A stretch of DNA of 49,833 nt from Escherichia phage phi2013: the sequence record MT427400.3. One strand, written 5' to 3'. Under the pieces are notes generated by a model. The model was not told the origin of the DNA. It did not search any database and saw only the letters and a list, made by a program, of their open reading frames with translations. Positions 5,953-49,827 of this stretch are shown piece after piece; within the stretch, counting starts at the first letter, position 1, and the number at the start of each line of letters is the position of its first letter. The position numbers and the translations under genes were made by a program.

Positions 5953-6525
5953 ATGAAAACAGCTATCATTTTAAACGGTGCGCCTGGCGCGGGAAAAGAC
6001 ACTATAGGGTGCATCCTGGCTGACACTTACGATCATGTAGCGCTACGCAGCTTTAAAGCTCCAATGTTTGAGATTGCCCGAGCAATCCTGGGTGAGACTA
6101 ATTTTGAGTATTTCATGTTCTTGTATGAGGACCGTCGCTATAAAGAAGAGCCAGCATCAATCCTGAACGGTAAAAGCCCGCGCCAGTTTATGATCTGGAT
6201 TAGCGAGGAGGTTATCAAGCCGCAGTTCGGAAATCGCTTCTTCGGTATGCGAGCGGAAAGCAAGGTGAAAGAGTCTCACTCCCTTTCGGTATTTACTGAC
6301 GGTGGATTCAAAGACGAAATCTTGCAGATGATTGAAGGTGAAATCCAGGTCAAGCTATGTCGAATCCATCGCAACGGTTGCAACTTTGACAACGACAGTC
6401 GCGACTACATCTATCTTGACGATATGATCGGGGTCAACGGTTATCAGGAATGTGACTTCTTCTCTGTCGAAGGTCATCCAGAAATTACCGCTCAGCACAT
6501 AGCCGCCACGTTCATCAACAAATAG
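5953..6525 (+). CDS. P-loop nucleotide kinase, dNMP kinase-like
   Basis: Walker A GAPGAGKDT at N-terminus; LNGKSP motif recalled from T4 gp1-type dNMP kinase. Confidence 0.6.
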   Translation: MKTAIILNGAPGAGKDTIGCILADTYDHVALRSFKAPMFEIARAILGETNFEYFMFLYEDRRYKEEPASILNGKSPRQFMIWISEEVIKPQFGNRFFGMRAESKVKESHSLSVFTDGGFKDEILQMIEGEIQVKLCRIHRNGCNFDNDSRDYIYLDDMIGVNGYQECDFFSVEGHPEITAQHIAATFINK

Positions 6526-6565
6526 CACGAATTGCTAAAACGTCGGTGGGGTGACTTGATATAGT
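6523..6565 (+). promoter_or_regulatory. early promoter cassette
   Basis: tagcacgaattgctaaaac; 22-bp spacer; TGa-TATAGT 6560-6565. Confidence 0.5.
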
Positions 6566-6597
6566 TACCTCATCGACAACGAAGAGAGAAAATCGAA

Positions 6598-6807
6598 ATG
6601 ATGGTATCAACTGATAAGTTTTTCACTTGCACTAAAACTTCTGAAGTATTCGAACTGGTTCATACTGATAATGGTGACTTCATGCATGACGGTTGCGACG
6701 TTTTCATTGAAGTGAAAGAAAGCGACTATGACTATGGGGTTTATTATAACCCGGCAGTGAACACTCAGTTTTTTACACCGATCGAAGAGGAAGGAGAAGA
6801 AGCATGA
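6598..6807 (+). CDS. hypothetical protein
   Basis: 69-aa ORF; stop overlaps next start (ATGA). Confidence 0.45.
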   Translation: MMVSTDKFFTCTKTSEVFELVHTDNGDFMHDGCDVFIEVKESDYDYGVYYNPAVNTQFFTPIEEEGEEA

Positions 6808-29490: not shown

Positions 29491-29514
29491 GCCCCTTGCG
29501 GGGCTTTTCTTTTA
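29490..29514. terminator. bidirectional rho-independent terminator
   Basis: gcccc ttgc ggggc then T-rich; separates convergent genes. Confidence 0.55.
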
Positions 29515-29739
29515 TATCGAGCAATCGTGAGACTTGAAGTTTTTCTCTGATACGTAGTTGAATGAGAATGGGTATCCAGCACGCAATAGCATCTCCTCTC
29601 CGCGCATCTTAGATCCAAAAACGTAAACCGAGTACTCTGCGCCTCCTGATTCATAAATTGCCGTACAAGTGCGCTCAGGCATCGATGAGCAACCAGTCAG
29701 GATGAATGCCGCAGCGATAATGGTGATTAACTTTTTCAT
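29512..29739 (-). CDS. outer-membrane lipoprotein, possible Cor/Llp-type superinfection exclusion factor
   Basis: N-terminus MKKLITIIAAAFILTGC has signal peptide and lipobox LTGC; 75 aa; SD gagga; next to tail genes. Confidence 0.5.
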   Translation of the reverse strand: MKKLITIIAAAFILTGCSSMPERTCTAIYESGGAEYSVYVFGSKMRGEEMLLRAGYPFSFNYVSEKNFKSHDCSI

Positions 29740-29819
29740 TTGTATGTCCTCGTCGTTAGTGTGATTGCATTGTATGTCGCATTTACTTTTATTGCAATAG
29801 CACTATTACAATTTTTTCG

Positions 29820-29835
29820 TGTAACAGGTGTCTAT
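29820..29835. repeat. iteron-like direct repeat copy 1 (TGTAACAGGTGTCTAT)
   Basis: second copy at 29961-29976, inverted related copy at 30168-30184. Confidence 0.6.
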
Positions 29836-29901
29836 TTTTGTAACCGGAGCGGGTGTTACAAAATCCACCCCATCCGACCGCAGAGGGATATGATAAAAAC
29901 T

Positions 29902-29918
29902 CTATATAATATATATAG
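29902..29918. repeat. 17-bp AT-rich repeat CTATATAATATATATAG (copy 1)
   Basis: exact second copy at 49001-49017. Confidence 0.65.
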
Positions 29919-29960
29919 ATAGATAATATTTAATTTTAGCTTTATATATAATTATTGTTG

Positions 29961-29976
29961 TGTAACAGTTGTCTAT
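29961..29976. repeat. iteron-like direct repeat copy 2 (TGTAACAGTTGTCTAT)
   Basis: 15/16 identical to 29820-29835. Confidence 0.6.
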
Positions 29977-30263
29977 TGTGTAACTGGTGATTTGATTGAT
30001 TCGTCAAATTTCTATCATATATGTTCAAAATTTAATCAATATGGATTCTACTTGTAGCTATCTCTGTATTTCTAAGAAAAAGCGGTTACAAGTATTACAC
30101 AGTAGACATCACATAAAAATAGACTTAAGCCATTGATTCCGTTAATGCTGGTTGTAACTTGAGCGATATAGACACGCTATTACACACCAATTACATGTAT
30201 CCGATTGACTAAACGCTGTTAATGGCTATAATGGATTCATCGTAAACGAAGGAGATAAACGCA

Positions 30264-31328
30264 ATGTTCCAAGTATTCACATCAAGTCAGCTTTCTAATG
30301 ACGAGTATCATAGCAACGAAGGTTGGGCGGCAGAGTATGTAAGCGGTTCGAGCCTTGCAGAAATTTATCAGACTTGCCCGGCTAACTGGCGATTCAAGAA
30401 GAACGAGACGACTAAAGCGCTGGAGTTTGGCACTCAGTCGCACACCAACTTTGAGAGCCGAGATCTGTTTACTGCATCGTATGCGCGTTGTCCGGCTCCG
30501 GCAGAGTTTAAAGATCTCATTACTTCGCAGGCGGCGCTGGCAGCAAAATTAAAATCTTTTGGCCTGAAAGGCACATCCGGTAAGCAGTACCCGGACCTCA
30601 TCAAAATGATGGTTGATTGTGGCGAAGACCTTAACGTTCAATACCTGATTGAACTGATCGCAGAGGCTGAGGCGCGCGCTGAAGGAAAGAAACTCGTCGA
30701 CGCTGATAAATACGACGCCTGCATGAAGATGAGAGCTATACTTGAACAGAACCCCGATCATGAAGCGTGCATCAACAGCGAAACAGCGCAGCGTGAAATC
30801 TCAATATTCGGTGAAATATCCGGCGTCAAGGTTAAGGTTCGACTAGATCATCTTGACTACAAAGAGAATGTACCAGGTCGTGTACTGACTGGTTATGATG
30901 AGAATGGTGATCCGGTATTTGAAGGCGTAATTTTCCCGGAAGCACTGATTATCACAGATTTCAAAACTACGATGAGCGCCAACCCGTTAGAGTTCCCGAG
31001 ACTGGCATACAATCACGGTTATTACCTGAAGATGGCATTGCAGCATGACCTGCTACGTCGCGCAATCCAGGCTGGCGCTTTTGAAGGAAACTTCCCGGAA
31101 GATATTCCGATCGTAGTTCGATTGCTTGCGCAGGAGAAAAAAGAGCCTTATATCGCACTGGCTTACCGTATGACTATGGAGCAAATCAGGATCGGTCGTA
31201 ACCAGTACATTAGCGTAGTCCACACTTACAAGGCTTGCTCTGAAATGGATGTTTGGCCTGGGTACGCTGGCGACGCAAGCGAGATCGAACTTGAAACGCC
31301 ATCATGGGTGCGTTACCAAAATAAGTAA
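30264..31328 (+). CDS. recombination exonuclease, PD-(D/E)XK RecE/YqaJ-like
   Basis: 354 aa directly upstream of Erf and SSB; IITDFKTT resembles the D-x-K core of PD-(D/E)XK nucleases. Confidence 0.5.
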   Translation: MFQVFTSSQLSNDEYHSNEGWAAEYVSGSSLAEIYQTCPANWRFKKNETTKALEFGTQSHTNFESRDLFTASYARCPAPAEFKDLITSQAALAAKLKSFGLKGTSGKQYPDLIKMMVDCGEDLNVQYLIELIAEAEARAEGKKLVDADKYDACMKMRAILEQNPDHEACINSETAQREISIFGEISGVKVKVRLDHLDYKENVPGRVLTGYDENGDPVFEGVIFPEALIITDFKTTMSANPLEFPRLAYNHGYYLKMALQHDLLRRAIQAGAFEGNFPEDIPIVVRLLAQEKKEPYIALAYRMTMEQIRIGRNQYISVVHTYKACSEMDVWPGYAGDASEIELETPSWVRYQNK

Positions 31329-35487: not shown

Positions 35488-35940
35488 TTAACTAAAAATG
35501 CTATTGGTCGTTCCGATATCTTCCTTCTTCACGACGCGCATAAATTTCTTGTTCTTGCATCGCTTCTCAAGGCACTTGCCGTTACCGTCAAACTTCAGGT
35601 CGAATCGCAACCATGCGGCACGAAATCCTTTGCACCCCTGTCGGCGGTAAGCGCGATGCGCAGCTTCAGCGCCTTGCCATGAAATCATATTTCGATCTTT
35701 CCAGCCTTGCACCGTCTGATTGCTAACTTTTAGAGCCTTTGCGCAGGCCGCAGGGCCGCCGTAATATTCGATAAGAGCATCAAGTCGCGCTCGCAGTCCG
35801 GCGCGTGTTTCTTCTTTATGAATATAGAACCCGCAACGCTGTCGAGGCTTTTTATCTTTACCGCGCCGTGTTCCGTTGTTACCATTGATGTGACGTTTAT
35901 CGATTTTACCAGTTGATTCTGCGATACGTTGAATACTCAT
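35488..35940 (-). CDS. HTH DNA-binding protein (Cro/YdaS-like), candidate transcriptional regulator
   Basis: GGPAACAKALKVSNQTVQGWKDRNMISWQGA helix-turn-helix pattern; SD aggaga; divergent from helicase. Confidence 0.5.
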   Translation of the reverse strand: MSIQRIAESTGKIDKRHINGNNGTRRGKDKKPRQRCGFYIHKEETRAGLRARLDALIEYYGGPAACAKALKVSNQTVQGWKDRNMISWQGAEAAHRAYRRQGCKGFRAAWLRFDLKFDGNGKCLEKRCKNKKFMRVVKKEDIGTTNSIFS

Positions 35941-35953
35941 CTTGATTCTCCTA

Positions 35954-35996
35954 TAGCACTTTTTGCTAAAAACGTTTACTTTATGCCGTGTATTAT
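35954..35996 (+). promoter_or_regulatory. helicase promoter cassette (TAGCAC-N5-TTGCTA, 22 bp, TATTAT)
   Basis: tagcactttttgctaaaa; TTGCTA 35963-35968; TATTAT 35991-35996; the palindrome also covers the SD region of the divergent HTH gene. Confidence 0.5.
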
Positions 35997-36033
35997 AGCG
36001 TAAACGTTACAACGATTCAAAGGATTAATAGCC

Positions 36034-38052: not shown

Positions 38053-38465
38053 TTACAGACAAAGGTGATTATTTAGAGTTTTACGAGCGAGATCCCAGCG
38101 ACACTCGAAAGGAGGACGCTCATCAGGTGGATTGTGTGTCCTGGCTGAAATACAATTTCCCTCACCTTCTATTTTGGCACACTGTCAATGAAGGTGAAAA
38201 AACAATCACATCAGCGCTCAGGGATGAGCAGGCCGGATTACTTAAAGGAGTGTCGGACTTCGTTATCCTGATTGGTGTTAACTCAAGATACCCGTTTGCA
38301 GCAATCGAACTTAAGCGGGTTAATAAGTCAGGCAAAGGAAAGGCGTCACCAGTCAGCGACAAGCAAAGGGAATTTCTCAGAAAGGTCATGGAGCGTGGCG
38401 GCTTCTCTGCCGTCGCATACGGATTTGAGCAATTCAAGATCGCAATTTACGAAATGATGAAATAG
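38049..38465 (+). CDS. VRR-NUC domain nuclease (PD-(D/E)XK)
   Basis: GVSDFVILIG...AAIELKR (D...ExK) and SDKQREFLRKV...GG pattern. Confidence 0.6.
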   Translation: MITDKGDYLEFYERDPSDTRKEDAHQVDCVSWLKYNFPHLLFWHTVNEGEKTITSALRDEQAGLLKGVSDFVILIGVNSRYPFAAIELKRVNKSGKGKASPVSDKQREFLRKVMERGGFSAVAYGFEQFKIAIYEMMK

Positions 38466-38508
38466 CACTTTTTGTTAAAACTGCCGGAATGGAATCTGGC
38501 ATTATTAT
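38463..38508 (+). promoter_or_regulatory. promoter cassette
   Basis: tagcactttttgttaaaac followed about 22 bp later by TATTAT-like hexamer. Confidence 0.4.
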
Positions 38509-43478: not shown

Positions 43479-45047
43479 TTAACCCATCAGTCGAGGGTTG
43501 ATGAAAACAATATCATCAATCCGGCAAGTGTAGTTCATCTCTTCGAGCGTGATCAGCAGGCTGTCGATTCGCTCAGATACTTTCTGTTGACCGTTGAACG
43601 GCGTAACGTTCCGGCACTTTGCAACGATGCTATGAATAGGTGCGCGGCCTTTGTTCTTCTTCGCGATCTCAGTGATAACATCAATCAGCTTACGAGATTC
43701 AGCCTCATCACCTGCATACCCGGCAGCGCTGGCAGATGACAGGTAAGTCCTGGAAAGCTCATTGAAGATCATGATCGCTTCCTGCATTGTTTCAAGGTCA
43801 ATCTCACGATTAGATCGGTTCGGTGATTCACCCTCCCAATTCTTGATCGTGTGAAGAACTGAAGCAATGCGCAAAGCGTGCTTATCGAACTTACCGAGAT
43901 GACCGCGTAGCATTGAGTGAGAGTATTTGCCCCCGGCGGCGAAATCAGGCTCCATCGCCTGGCGAGCAAGGTTTAATTCACGCATAGCGTTACGGCTTAC
44001 AGAGAGAACGACGTTGTCCTCCTTCATAATGTTGTGCACGAGTCTGTAATATTTGCTAACCAGTCCGCGATCTACTTCCTTATACAGCGCATCACCATTT
44101 TCATCGCAAAGAATACGAGTACCTAAAAGCGGTTCCTCTCGAACCAGGAGGAAACGCTCAGATACACCGATACCGCGCTGGCCTGCGTCCATGATACCCT
44201 TGATTGTTTCATCCTGCGCAATGACGCAGATCGAACCGACCGGGCAAAGAGATAAGTTGTTGTCCTGATTTGAACGCGCGACCTCCATATGGTTTTTATC
44301 CCACGCCTTAAGAATAAGCTCGCTGTTTGATTTCTTATCAGAACCGCCATAAGTCAGACCAAGCAATGTATTGATTGCCGTTGCTTCATCAGATATTACG
44401 GAAAAGTGGCCTTGAACAGCCGCAACTTTCGCAAGACCTTCAGGTGTAGGATCTGATACCGCGAAAACAATATCAGCCATCTTCTTGATCTTTTCTTCCA
44501 GTTTTTCCTTGTCTTCGTACAGAGCCGCCGTCGTGTTACCCTTTGGATCGTTTTTTATTTCTTTCTCGACCTGACGTAGCTGACTGGTTAAACGTATGCG
44601 CTCCTTTTTGCGCTCTTCATTCAGTCGCTGAATCTCCGCACGCATAGGTGTAATCGCCGCTGAGTTAATAGCGGACTTACCTGTTGATGGTGGCTGGCTG
44701 ATTACCATGTAAAGCGCGGTCGGCTGTTCTTCGCCGTGATATTGCACCCAAAACTTCCCGAGCATAGCGGCTGAGATGCACCCAATGAAATGAGCGTACG
44801 CAGACGAAACAGGGAACTGTACAGACTCAGCCTTTGCCTTTGCATATTCGAATACCAGGTTATCGCCACCTAACGAAATCAGCGGGAACTTATCGTTTCC
44901 ACTGTTGATATCGATCGGATCTTGCCAAAACGAAACTGAATCCCCATAGCTGTTTTCACGAATTGCGATCGACACCGGATTAACTCCAGTGCTATTTGCG
45001 ATCTCAATAATCTGTTGGTAATTCAATTTTGGCTTAATATTAAACAT
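43479..45047 (-). CDS. P-loop NTPase with SF3-helicase-like Walker A (PPSTGKS)
   Basis: start at ATG 45047 after SD aaggag; Walker A ISQPPSTGKSAI; 522 aa. Confidence 0.55.
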   Translation of the reverse strand: MFNIKPKLNYQQIIEIANSTGVNPVSIAIRENSYGDSVSFWQDPIDINSGNDKFPLISLGGDNLVFEYAKAKAESVQFPVSSAYAHFIGCISAAMLGKFWVQYHGEEQPTALYMVISQPPSTGKSAINSAAITPMRAEIQRLNEERKKERIRLTSQLRQVEKEIKNDPKGNTTAALYEDKEKLEEKIKKMADIVFAVSDPTPEGLAKVAAVQGHFSVISDEATAINTLLGLTYGGSDKKSNSELILKAWDKNHMEVARSNQDNNLSLCPVGSICVIAQDETIKGIMDAGQRGIGVSERFLLVREEPLLGTRILCDENGDALYKEVDRGLVSKYYRLVHNIMKEDNVVLSVSRNAMRELNLARQAMEPDFAAGGKYSHSMLRGHLGKFDKHALRIASVLHTIKNWEGESPNRSNREIDLETMQEAIMIFNELSRTYLSSASAAGYAGDEAESRKLIDVITEIAKKNKGRAPIHSIVAKCRNVTPFNGQQKVSERIDSLLITLEEMNYTCRIDDIVFINPRLMG

Positions 45048-45076
45048 CACAATAAACTCCTTAGTTGACGGTGTGA

Positions 45077-45120
45077 ATGATACACCGCCAATGGTACACG
45101 CGTTTTGCAAAAAGTGCTAT
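45077..45120 (-). promoter_or_regulatory. promoter cassette (minus strand)
   Basis: minus-strand tagcactttttgcaaaa, 22-bp spacer, TATCAT, upstream of ATPase gene. Confidence 0.45.
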
Positions 45121-48613: not shown

Positions 48614-48645
48614 TGCCTGAGTCCTCTGATTGGTTGATGTGATGA

Positions 48646-48690
48646 ATCATACCCTGCCGACCTGGCTGAGTCGTTAGCAAAAAATGCTAT
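48646..48690 (-). promoter_or_regulatory. promoter cassette (minus strand, approximate)
   Basis: minus-strand tagcattttttgctaa then about 22-23 bp then TATGAT. Confidence 0.4.
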
Positions 48691-48740
48691 TCCAATAATT
48701 GCTCATTATTCCATCAATAGCGGAATAGGTGGAATAATTC

Positions 48741-48830
48741 TGATTGCGATTGATTGCAAATGATGAAACGTGATTATTGCATGGTTTGCAACAGTTGGTT
48801 GATTTGTTGCTTAGATTGCAATGATTGTGA
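48741..48830. repeat. imperfect tandem array with 10-bp period (TGATTGCnAT-like units)
   Basis: tgattgcgat / tgattgcaaa / tgatgaaacg / tgattattgc at 48741-48780, further gattgcaatgattg copies to 48830. Confidence 0.55.
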
Positions 48831-48832
48831 GA

Positions 48833-48839
48833 GGGGGGG
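48833..48839. repeat. G7 homopolymer tract
   Basis: ggggggg in an otherwise AT-rich noncoding region. Confidence 0.7.
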
Positions 48840-49000
48840 ATCTAGTGTTGCCCGGTTCGCCTGGTAGTCATCTCCATTTTTAGCAAAAAGTGCTATCGAT
48901 TACACTTTACCTTGTCACAGATGTAATATTTGTCTAGAATCGCACTTGTGACAAAATTACACACTGTGACGCCTCTAAATATACATATAGATATATGTAT

Positions 49001-49017
49001 CTATATAATATATATAG
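49001..49017. repeat. 17-bp AT-rich repeat CTATATAATATATATAG (copy 2)
   Basis: exact match to 29902-29918. Confidence 0.65.
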
Positions 49018-49240
49018 TGTTTTCTTTATTTATATATATAGATAATTATATTGTAATAGTTGTGTATAGTTGTCTTACATTGTCTAGCGTACTGTTGGCA
49101 TATTTCTATCTGCATGTTTATATATACAGTACTTTTTTGAGAGCTATATATTTCTATAGTGACTCTAGACAGCTAGACAAATGTTACACAGCTTAATATC
49201 GGCTCGCAGTCATTGACAGCTCTGTATCGCACTGTCACAA

Positions 49241-49255
49241 TGTCAATTGTTGACA
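49241..49255. repeat. perfect palindrome TGTCAA-TTG-TTGACA
   Basis: 6-bp arms; nearby related half-sites tgtcaca, tgtgaca, ctagaca, tgtctag. Confidence 0.6.
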
Positions 49256-49299
49256 CATTATGACGCCATTTACACACGAATAGACAAAGAGGATATATT

Positions 49300-49815
49300 A
49301 TGAGCAATACCAATCAGGAATTAAAAATCACCGATATGATTCGACTAACCTGCGATGCAATGTATCGCGACAAAGGCATGAATGAGTTCTCTTTCGTGGC
49401 TGATGATATGGCCCTCGAGGCCGCGCGATTCTACTTCCGTGACCAGGAGGTAAGTGATAGCGATCTTGAATCTGCCGCTGCCGGATGGGTGGACCAGAAC
49501 CAGGGTGAGGTGGAGAAGCGATTCAAGTCTGCTTTCATTACGCCAATCATTACCCGGCACTTTTGCAAGTATGGCAAGGTGGCAAAGGTGAAGGTAGGCC
49601 GGAATGACGCTGCAATCACAATGATAACGGTTATCGTTACCGACGAAGAGATTCCCGTGAAGAAGCGCCGCAGTCGGAAGAAAGTTAGCCTGGCCGATTG
49701 CCTGGATTCGTTTGTGGTTGATGTGGGTAAACTGGCTGATAGCGAATTGATGACTCGTGACGTAAACGAGATCGTTCGCCAGATGAAGGCGCATATCGAA
49801 AAGTGTGGACTGTAA
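49300..49815 (+). CDS. hypothetical protein (first rightward gene after the noncoding hub)
   Basis: 171 aa; SD aaagagga; stop lies inside the terminal 26-bp repeat. Confidence 0.55.
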   Translation: MSNTNQELKITDMIRLTCDAMYRDKGMNEFSFVADDMALEAARFYFRDQEVSDSDLESAAAGWVDQNQGEVEKRFKSAFITPIITRHFCKYGKVAKVKVGRNDAAITMITVIVTDEEIPVKKRRSRKKVSLADCLDSFVVDVGKLADSELMTRDVNEIVRQMKAHIEKCGL

Positions 49816-49827
49816 GCACTGAGCGGT
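49802..49827. repeat. terminal direct repeat, identical to 7-32
   Basis: agtgtggactgtaagcactgagcggt at both window ends. Confidence 0.8.

Follow-up and report, generated by a model that had tools for sequence, protein, structure and literature searches.

What is half a kilobase of gene-free DNA doing at the border between the superinfection-exclusion gene cor and the recombination gene recE of a T1-like phage? The question is raised by Escherichia phage phi2013 (sequence record MT427400.3), whose 49,833 nucleotides are called the window below; the region at issue, 29741-30263, will be termed hub R1. We find it filled with short repeat words that are enriched, phased and set in both orientations around an AT-rich core; this core is duplicated in a second hub, R2, and the layout recurs in other genera with words that differ by lineage. 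We suggest that R1 is a real, conserved platform, predicted to bind protein, and the comparative data strengthen this case. Its edges are supported as promoters with operator-like units, with some published experimental backing. For the whole we tentatively propose, on the strength of analogy, a replication-initiation region fused to divergent promoters, a reading that we consider plausible and a little short of probable.

Repeat words, AT-rich core and a second hub

The internal features of R1 are listed from left to right.

29741-30263, no strand: non-coding hub R1, between the start codons of cor and recE, delimited from the open reading frame (ORF) list and PHROG matches
29820-29844, plus strand: left direct array, with TGTAAC at 29820, TGTCTA at 29829 and TGTAAC at 29839, in 9-10 bp phasing
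29838-29861, no strand: palindrome TTGTAAC-N10-GTTACAA, repeat-unit arms around a 10-nt spacer
29888-29955, no strand: AT-rich core, ~90% A+T, a candidate DNA-unwinding element by duplex stability and conservation
29956-29984, plus strand: middle direct array, with TGTAAC at 29961, TGTCTA at 29970 and TGTAAC at 29979, overlapped by TGTGTA units
29985-30040, no strand: moderately AT-rich spacer GTGATTTGATTGATTCGTCAAATTTCTATCATATATGTTCAAAATTTAATCAAT, highly conserved among Tunaviruses
30085-30108, minus strand: inverted array, with GTTACA at 30085, ATTACA at 30094 and TAGACA at 30103, in 9-bp phasing
30126-30138, minus strand: IHF consensus match WATCAANNNNTTR, the sole match in R1, with 5 genome-wide (weak evidence)
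30152-30195, both strands: promoter-proximal cluster, with TGTAAC at 30153 (plus), TAGACA at 30169 (minus), ATTACA at 30179 (minus) and ATTACA at 30190 (minus)

An unbiased ranking of hexamers placed TGTAAC first among the over-represented words of R1 (p ~1e-8); 7 of its 27 genomic copies fall within these 523 bp, an enrichment of ~34-fold (binomial p ~1e-8). TGTCTA has 16 genomic copies, with 4 in R1 and 5 in the paralogous gap 48614-49299 (9/16, ~50-fold enriched). The TGTAAY and TGTCTA units alone number 15 in R1 against ~2 expected. When the family is widened to six words (TGTAAC, TGTAAT, TGTCTA, TGTGTA, TGTCAC and TGTGAC), a set defined after the hubs had been inspected, R1 holds 19 sites against 2.1 +/- 1.5 in shuffles and the second region 21 (shuffles ~2-3), and the two hubs reach a density of 31-36 sites per kb, compared with 1.65 in the rest of the genome (~20-fold). 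Spacings between same-strand hexamers peak sharply at 9 bp, and the five occurrences of the 16-mer TGTAACAGNTGTCTAT, with 3 mismatches at most, all fall within R1 or 48922-49188. The initial annotation, made by a model from the letters and an ORF list, had spoken of iteron-like repeats here. The sequences it quoted are all where it put them (TGTAACAGGTGTCTAT at 29820-29835, TGTAACAGTTGTCTAT at 29961-29976 and ATAGACACGCTATTACA at 30168-30184), and its list of half-sites is correct overall except for the one at 30075, the GTTACA in question lying at 30085-30090. The repeats are thus real, enriched and present in both orientations, but they are phased 6-bp words, unlike the 17-22-bp iterons of plasmids and lambda. 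The half-site GTCTAT at 30119 is unconserved among relatives and is probably due to chance.

The core stands out by its physical properties. When duplex stability was computed with a nearest-neighbor model for 60-mers across the whole genome, 29894-29954 emerged as the second least stable (z 5.5), bearing out the AT-rich core noted in the initial annotation. The least stable 60-mer of the 49.8-kb genome is its paralogue at 48991-49051 (z 5.7), and the next best elsewhere reaches z 3.5. Within the core lie the 17-mer CTATATAATATATATAG (29902-29918) and two TATAAT hexamers (29905-29910 and 29947-29952), both without a -35. The 17-mer occurs exactly twice, here and at 49001-49017, the recurrence already reported in that annotation, and in 0 of 100 shuffles. 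Beyond the middle array, 30007-30047 ranks within the five least stable 40-mers genome-wide.

The second location is hub R2, which comprises the following.

48900-49299, no strand: paralogous hub R2, inside the divergent gap 48614-49299
48913-48936, direct orientation: left direct array, itself promoter-like
48976-49076, no strand: AT core with the 17-mer at 49001-49017, the paralogue of the R1 core
49052-49086, direct orientation: second direct array, recognized by its repeat words
49166-49188, inverted orientation: inverted array (TAGACA, TAGACA, GTTACA), recognized by its repeat words
49213-49241: promoter-like TTGACA-17-CACAAT, read from the sequence

R1 and R2 share an 80-bp co-linear module that runs from the 17-mer through AT-rich DNA to TGTAAYAGTTGTNTAT (local alignment 53 vs 23 +/- 3 in shuffles) and takes in the middle array. 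The two cores resemble each other more within one genome than across lineages, and in the Webervirus KLPPOU149 R1 and R2 are again the two melting minima of the genome, with near-identical cores flanked by the Webervirus word. The gap 48614-49299 includes the left end of the T1 genome and the start of its 2.8-kb terminal repeat, and the R2 hub lies just inside these. In T1 proper, ISF002 and ADB-2 (L148, L149 and L150), three tandem CGATTAACA 9-mers stand at the position of 49166-49190; the replacement is accompanied by an extra short ORF and by a first gene only 47-52% identical, which amounts to the mosaic exchange of array and gene as one cassette. The non-coding stretch 48674-48758, immediately to the left of the T1 genome end, carries ATTCC/GGAAT and GATTGC repeats; it is ~80% conserved in ~200 Klebsiella Webervirus records, with flanks that cannot be aligned, and is probably a pac or small-terminase recognition region.

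Conservation was followed in 15 distinct Tunavirus sequences and, for the family, in recE loci, helicase loci with 10-kb flanks and the whole genomes of SRT8, IME347, TLS, ESCO41 and one Webervirus. Among the Tunaviruses, most repeat units are kept while the DNA between the arrays drifts, a pattern as expected for predicted protein-binding sites. The stretch 29888-29976, which spans the AT core and the middle array, differs by two substitutions and a TA indel only; the core accounts for one substitution and the TA indel, and is otherwise invariant. The left array keeps its units, T1's own middle unit excepted, and the middle array its hexamers, with TGTATA as the T1 middle unit; the promoter-proximal cluster is likewise conserved. 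The palindrome has near-invariant arms (single changes in two phages) around a hypervariable 10-nt spacer, the signature of a dimer-binding site, for which it is a candidate.

In every sampled member of the Drexlerviridae that keeps the recE module, 470-520 bp of non-coding DNA precede recE, and in Webervirus the hub moved along when the module was inverted. A single orientation layout, at near-equal distances from recE, is found in T1-like phages, T1, SRT8, IME347, TLS, L047 and Webervirus. Counted from the recE ATG, it reads as follows.

-445 to -425: three forward units (>>>), the place of the left array, also occupied in the other genera
about -410: one reverse unit (<)
-370 to -290: AT core, at the same position in all genera examined
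-303 to -273: three forward units (>>>)
-180 to -160: two reverse units (<<), the inverted array, present here in all genera
about -110: one forward unit (>)
-95 to -74: two reverse units (<<), which with the preceding unit form the > << pattern of the promoter-proximal cluster, the same in other genera
after the last cluster: recE promoter

The word set into this frame is specific to the lineage.

Tunavirus: TGTAAC/TGTCTA
SRT8: TGTAAT (10 copies)
IME347 and ESCO41: TGTAAC plus TGTATA
TLS-like phages: TGTTYY
Webervirus: GGTAAGAT
AAS23-like lineage: AAGTGCGGYAA

In Webervirus, the hub holds 10 of the 11 GTAAGAT of a 22-kb locus. Because the word differs among phages of the same host, the reader of the repeats is most likely a phage-encoded protein that co-evolves with its sites, in the manner of initiators and their origins, and a host factor is unlikely. 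Relatives of the L128 type have recE without an upstream gap or hub. L128 itself, a distant relative whose recE is 34% identical, carries TGGGGT/GGTGGG repeats around AT-rich DNA at its positions 6440-6765, directly upstream of the operon of DUF3987, a helicase family taken up below.

The window as a whole is a complete genome of the genus Tunavirus (T1-like, Drexlerviridae), judging from its near-identity to JMPW1, IME167 and T1 and from its T1 gene order: over the 1-kb stretch around the hub, the Escherichia phages JMPW1 and IME167 are 100% identical and T1 ~94%, and the gene order is the same as in the T1 record. The T1 and JMPW1 records begin at window position 48776. The window itself opens, at 1-33, with GGATCTAGTG, which repeats 48840-48849; the next 26 nt repeat 49800-49826, and divergence sets in after that. 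These duplicated ends look like an assembly or circularization junction rather than biology.

A proposed replication start and its candidate readers

On the reading that we tentatively favor, the edges of R1 would be promoters, a weak leftward one for cor (29834-29805) and a strong rightward one for recE-erf-ssb (30205-30232), and its center, ~29820-30108, would be a replication-initiation region, one of two paralogous copies (the other at ~48910-49190). A phage-encoded, sequence-specific protein would occupy the phased 6-bp words TGTAAC, TGTAAT and TGTCTA, arranged >>> < to the left of the AT core and >>> ... <<< to its right. Cooperative binding would then melt or distort the ~70-bp, 90% A+T core, the MCM-like DUF3987 helicase would be loaded there, and the phage primase and host Pol III would take over. 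The favored reader would be the helicase's own C-terminal winged helix, as in the Rep protein of Staphylococcus aureus pathogenicity islands (SaPIs). In this scheme it is the binding of a protein to the repeats, the identity of the binder and the start of replication at the hub that we infer. Of the two options in the initial annotation, the control region with several operators is supported by the near-consensus recE promoter, a plausible cor promoter and published reporter data on the regulator Pir; the replication origin draws on architecture and analogy. A more elaborate version, which we regard as doubtful, would see in the two hubs concertedly evolving, paralogous origins of the Drexlerviridae, in which the DUF3987 winged helix would recognize lineage-specific words of 6-8 bp (GTAAC, GTAAT, GGTAAGAT, TGTTYY) that frame an extreme AT-rich unwinding element in a constant order of orientations. 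A classic virulent coliphage would then employ self-loading in the double-hexamer style (the SaPI/eukaryotic-virus type), with specificity switching by single-base changes.

Three phage proteins come into question as trans-acting factors.

43479-45047, minus strand: DUF3987, MCM-like superfamily 6 (SF6) replicative helicase with a C-terminal winged helix (Pfam E 3e-42)
35488-35940, minus strand: orthologue of Pir (T1 orf23), a Cro/C2-like helix-turn-helix (HTH) protein (PHROG "transcriptional regulator"; weak Pfam P22_Cro match)
49300-49815, plus strand: fast-evolving 171-aa early protein, product of the first gene to the right of R2 (PHROG 11083)

DUF3987 proteins are SF6 replicative helicases with a C-terminal winged HTH and demonstrated 5'-3' helicase activity (PMC4889955, PMC11724360). 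The AlphaFold model of the phage protein has a predicted local distance difference test (pLDDT) score of 88, its top 50 fold matches in the PDB are all MCM subunits, and its C-terminus has the H-beta-H-H-beta-beta topology of a winged helix. Sequence searches of the helicase against the PDB, with the single sequence and with a profile, gave no significant match, hence none to SaPI Rep. The mechanically assigned ORF, 43479-45110, starts with TTG (543 aa); translation probably begins instead at the ATG at 45047 (522 aa), because all homologues are 520-527 aa long.

The divergence of the 171-aa protein parallels the repeat word: it is 53% identical to its counterpart in IME347 (TGTAAC) and 28% to that in SRT8 (TGTAAT), the other replication proteins being 74-83% identical. 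Its model has a winged-helix-like H-H-H-beta-beta core, with no significant fold match in the PDB, and no homologue was detectable in TLS or Webervirus. As a reader of the repeats it is a lead only. The gene is mosaic and fast-evolving within Tunavirus (73-94% identity) and encodes a conserved KKRRSRKK patch; relatives of the protein give a sub-threshold match to DUF7174.

A number of points weigh against a replication start. T1 replication may depend largely on recombination, with formation of concatemers. The repeat word is followed only in part by the helicase winged helix: at a few positions of the wing T1 equals IME347 and differs from SRT8 (Y/R vs H/V), and ESCO41, which has TGTAAC, does not conform. 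The recognition helix of Pir gives no clear pattern either, being identical in SRT8 and IME347. A distance of 13 kb separates the helicase gene from R1 and one of 3.5 kb from R2, unlike the adjacency seen in SaPIs. The distal arrays of R1 and R2 are unlike each other, and in T1 proper the right array of R2 has been exchanged for the CGATTAACA 9-mers along with the divergent neighbor gene, a swap reminiscent of modules that pair an operator with its regulator, which would imply at least two binders. Promoter hexamers overlap with some of the repeat units, TAGACA being similar to a -35 and TGTAAT to a -10, and the left array of R2 is promoter-like. Both hubs head divergent early operons, the natural place for transcriptional control, and T1 Pir represses the promoter-proximal 150 bp (PMC6737242).

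Promoters, Pir and the competing explanations

The last of these points lead to the edges of the hub, where the promoters and the genes that they would serve are arranged as follows.

29512-29739, minus strand: cor, Cor superinfection-exclusion lipoprotein, the left neighbor of R1
29834-29805, minus strand: candidate cor promoter TAGACA-N18-TGTAAT, weak, read from the sequence and annotated as a promoter in SA32RD
30205-30232, plus strand: recE promoter TTGACT-16-TATAAT (11/12 matches), near-consensus sigma-70, found by promoter scan
from 30264, plus strand: recE-erf-ssb operon (recE/Erf/SSB), the right neighbor of R1

The lipoprotein gene and the recombination module that had been named as the flanks of the region are thus cor and recE/Erf/SSB. 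The recE promoter has one variable spacer position among the 15 Tunaviruses, is otherwise invariant, and carries a promoter annotation in the T1 and SA32RD records; it is followed by a Shine-Dalgarno AGGAG (30250-30254) and the ATG at 30264. At 10-52 bp ahead of the -35 stand four repeat units, and the spacer of this promoter contains TGTTAAT. Both hexamers of the cor promoter belong to the repeat family. In reporter assays, T1 Pir, which is 97-100% identical across the Tunavirus loci compared, repressed the recE promoter and its own promoter and activated the hol and dam promoters; the repressed recE fragment extends from -150 to +15, and CRP likewise represses it (PMC6737242). This fragment contains the four promoter-proximal repeat units, and the upstream hexamer cluster 30152-30195 probably acts as operators of the recE promoter.

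The strongest competitor is a purely transcriptional hub, in which the arrays would be operators or enhancer-like sites for Pir, the 171-aa protein or both, and no replication would start there. The divergent cor and recE-erf-ssb promoters, and the early operons at R2, would be timed by occlusion or DNA looping, and the AT core would serve as a flexible or UP-like element or as an activator-dependent promoter, comparable to the early/late switch of phi29. We take this to be a serious possibility, though not a probable one. It draws on the strong recE promoter with a plausible cor promoter, on repression by both Pir and CRP of the -150 to +15 fragment with its four repeat units (PMC6737242), on a TGTAAC in the spacer of the autoregulated pir promoter, on a palindrome with conserved arms and variable spacer, on the swap of the R2 right array together with its fast-evolving neighbor gene, typical of regulator-operator cassettes, and on the operon-head location of both hubs. 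Set against these, 15-19 phased sites over 400 bp, mostly >100 bp from any promoter, exceed the need of two promoters, and the AT core with its surroundings (~90 bp) hardly varies, forms an extreme melting minimum and is duplicated in R2. The general promoter class marked by ATAGCACNNNTTGNTAAAA (24 copies) is absent from R1. As for Pir, which stays a candidate reader, its recognition helix is the same in SRT8 (TGTAAT) and IME347 (TGTAAC), and the Webervirus word GTAAGAT is absent from the Webervirus pir-helicase intergenic region, which holds the pir promoter. Finally, lineage-specific operator specificity would, we infer, be less needed in a strictly lytic phage.

Two observations on promoters elsewhere in the window touch on Pir. 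The divergent pir-helicase region, 35941-36033, has two face-to-face promoters in 93 bp, a rightward one of the ATAGCAC-repeat type and a leftward TTGAAT-17-TATAAT; the spacer of the latter holds the TGTAAC, within the near-palindrome GTAACGTTTAC, which may be the site of Pir autoregulation. The repeat ATAGCACNNNTTGNTAAAA has 24 copies genome-wide with up to 2 mismatches, against 0.08 expected (35-53, 774-792, 1795-1813, 35953-35971, 38462-38480, 48878-48896 and 18 others); the copies lie mostly upstream of genes, oriented with transcription, embed a -35-like TTGNTA and precede, among others, dam and an SF2 helicase gene. It corresponds to the "21-nt repeat" that the TLS paper (PMC11447400) left unexplained. 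As it precedes dam, and as Pir activates the T1 dam and hol promoters, it may mark a Pir-dependent promoter class; with 0 of 24 copies in R1, the hub is ruled out as a further member of that class.

Other cis functions of the two hubs, as an entry point for recombination-dependent replication and concatemers or as chromosome-organizing sites for IHF, Fis or H-NS, seem improbable to us. The link of the hub to recE-erf-ssb in most genera, its co-movement on the Webervirus inversion, the position of R2 next to the genome end and terminal repeat, and the one IHF consensus site in R1 would fit such a role, and H-NS and Fis are drawn to AT-rich DNA. Yet a host protein is disfavored by words that differ by lineage among phages of one host, recombinases of the RecE/Erf type are not sequence-specific, and relatives of the L128 type have their hub away from recE.

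Least likely, and very unlikely in absolute terms, is an R-loop origin like oriF/oriG of T4, whose architecture is reportedly that described in Kreuzer's work, with TATAAT 29905-29910 as the -10 of an activator-dependent promoter, from which RNA would enter the AT-rich unwinding element further downstream and serve as primer for the leading strand, the flanking hexamers binding the activator: in T1-like phages, SRT8, IME347, TLS and L047 the AT core does have a TATAAT-like hexamer at its left edge, the R2 copy has a weak -35-like TATACA 18 bp upstream, and the repeat unit GTTACA at 29855 lies ~45 bp upstream of the core TATAAT, but the promoter scan gave no recognizable -35 for this TATAAT in R1, TATAAT is expected by chance in 90% A+T DNA, and the Webervirus hexamer is ATATAT or TAGATA.

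Several other candidates were rejected. A DnaA-dependent origin of the oriC type, for which host DnaA had been suggested as a binder, finds no DnaA boxes (TTWTNCACA) in R1 or R2 (one genome-wide, with only 1-mismatch look-alikes such as TATTACACA) and no GATC in the 523 bp of R1, where ~2.5 would be expected from the genome density (R2 has one). No full CRP site was found in R1. A lambda-type or plasmid iteron origin does not fit units of 6 bp, a non-coding region and a longest direct-repeat family (23 nt) that has 2 copies only, 141 bp apart. A distant blastn search of PLSDB plasmids returned nothing similar to the hub. A structured RNA, tRNA or small RNA was rejected because Rfam and the tRNA search (ARAGORN) gave 0 matches in the region and because the folding of 29980-30204 (plus strand) and 29741-29900 (minus strand), with z of -0.9 and -1.5, was no better than that of shuffles. 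The ORF 29996-30136 (46 codons, T1 CPTT1_049) was rejected as a small gene, its variable sites being spread 8:13:12 over the codon positions, without third-position bias, and no homologue being found outside Tunavirus (SRT8, IME347 and TLS were searched); CPTT1_049 is probably an over-annotation in the updated T1 record.

Significance and likeness to known systems

T1 belongs to the seven classic T phages and is notorious for contaminating laboratories and fermentations, and this DNA has been public since 2004; we found no earlier description of the conserved architecture, the duplication or the lineage-specific words. Genome papers on T1-like phages report that no replication origin was found (PMC11447400, PMC7718038), and in the literature searched we located no publication that maps a T1 origin or transcription start sites. 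A vague AT-rich gap is here turned into two precisely bounded, testable candidate elements, for which the lineage words offer natural specificity swaps. If the hubs are origins, they would link the widespread DUF3987/MCM-like phage helicases to a recognizable origin grammar, help to annotate hundreds of Drexlerviridae genomes, and provide both a point of attack against contamination and building blocks for engineered phages. If they are control regions only, they would still show where the recombination module and early operons are regulated and yield a candidate binding motif for Pir or a new early protein.

Among the known systems compared are oriF/oriG of T4 and the primary origin of T7, where a promoter is followed by an AT-rich unwinding element, with several origins per genome and no known flanking repeat arrays. 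R1 shares with them a candidate AT-rich unwinding element and a promoter-like hexamer, and differs in having flanking arrays and no recognizable -35 or activator box. The regulatory switches OR/OL of lambda and A2c-A2b-A3 of phi29 (p4, p6) are alike in their divergent promoters, in AT-rich DNA with several regulator sites and in a phage regulator, here the HTH protein Pir acting on the recE promoter. They have 3-4 promoter-overlapping sites over 80-220 bp, whereas R1 has 15-19 sites over 400 bp, mostly distant from promoters, and is centered on an extreme melting minimum with a core duplicated 19 kb away. The lambda origin and the iteron plasmids RK2, P1 and pPS10 also place repeated initiator sites beside an AT-rich unwinding element, with a specificity that co-evolves with the initiator. 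Their iterons, however, are 17-22 bp long with 22-bp spacing, the lambda origin lies inside the O gene, and DnaA boxes are mostly present; R1 has 6-bp words with a 9-bp period, is non-coding, and lacks DnaA boxes and GATC.

A further parallel is offered by satellite phage P4, whose ori and crr are two separated cis regions with direct and inverted copies of TGTTCACC, read by the C-terminal winged helix of the alpha primase-helicase. The two hubs are similarly separated and carry a short word in both orientations, and the P4 word is resembled by TGTTCY of the TLS lineage and by the TGTTCACA unit in the TLS hub. The P4 alpha protein combines a primase with a helicase of the SF3 type, whereas in T1-like phages the primase is separate and the helicase belongs to SF6.

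The parallel for the center of R1 is the SaPI origin, in which 6-12 penta- or hexanucleotide iterons in opposed orientations are split by a central AT-rich region and read by the C-terminal winged helix of an MCM-clade Rep (PMC9371898). The SaPI origin lies immediately downstream of rep, whereas the helicase gene of phi2013 is 3.5-13 kb away from the hubs; only the L128-type hub adjoins the DUF3987 operon. The phage also has two paralogous copies, more units, at least two words (TGTAAY, TGTCTA) and promoters fused at both edges, and the binding demonstrated for SaPI Rep is in the phage a prediction by analogy. We would hence say that the hub works like a SaPI origin rather than that it is a member of that class, because the adjacency of origin and rep is not shared and the defining functions are drawn from analogy. 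The likeness is nonetheless extensive. Where at least six penta- or hexanucleotide repeats characterize such origins, R1 has 15, or 19 with the wider family; where an AT-rich center is flanked by at least two opposed repeats on each side, R1 has the more complex arrangement >>> < around 29888-29955 followed by >>> ... <<<; and the phage encodes its own MCM-like winged-helix helicase, DUF3987 (43479-45047). Short, element-specific repeats on both sides of an AT-rich region, together with an encoded MCM-clade helicase that ends in a winged helix, are what the two systems have in common.

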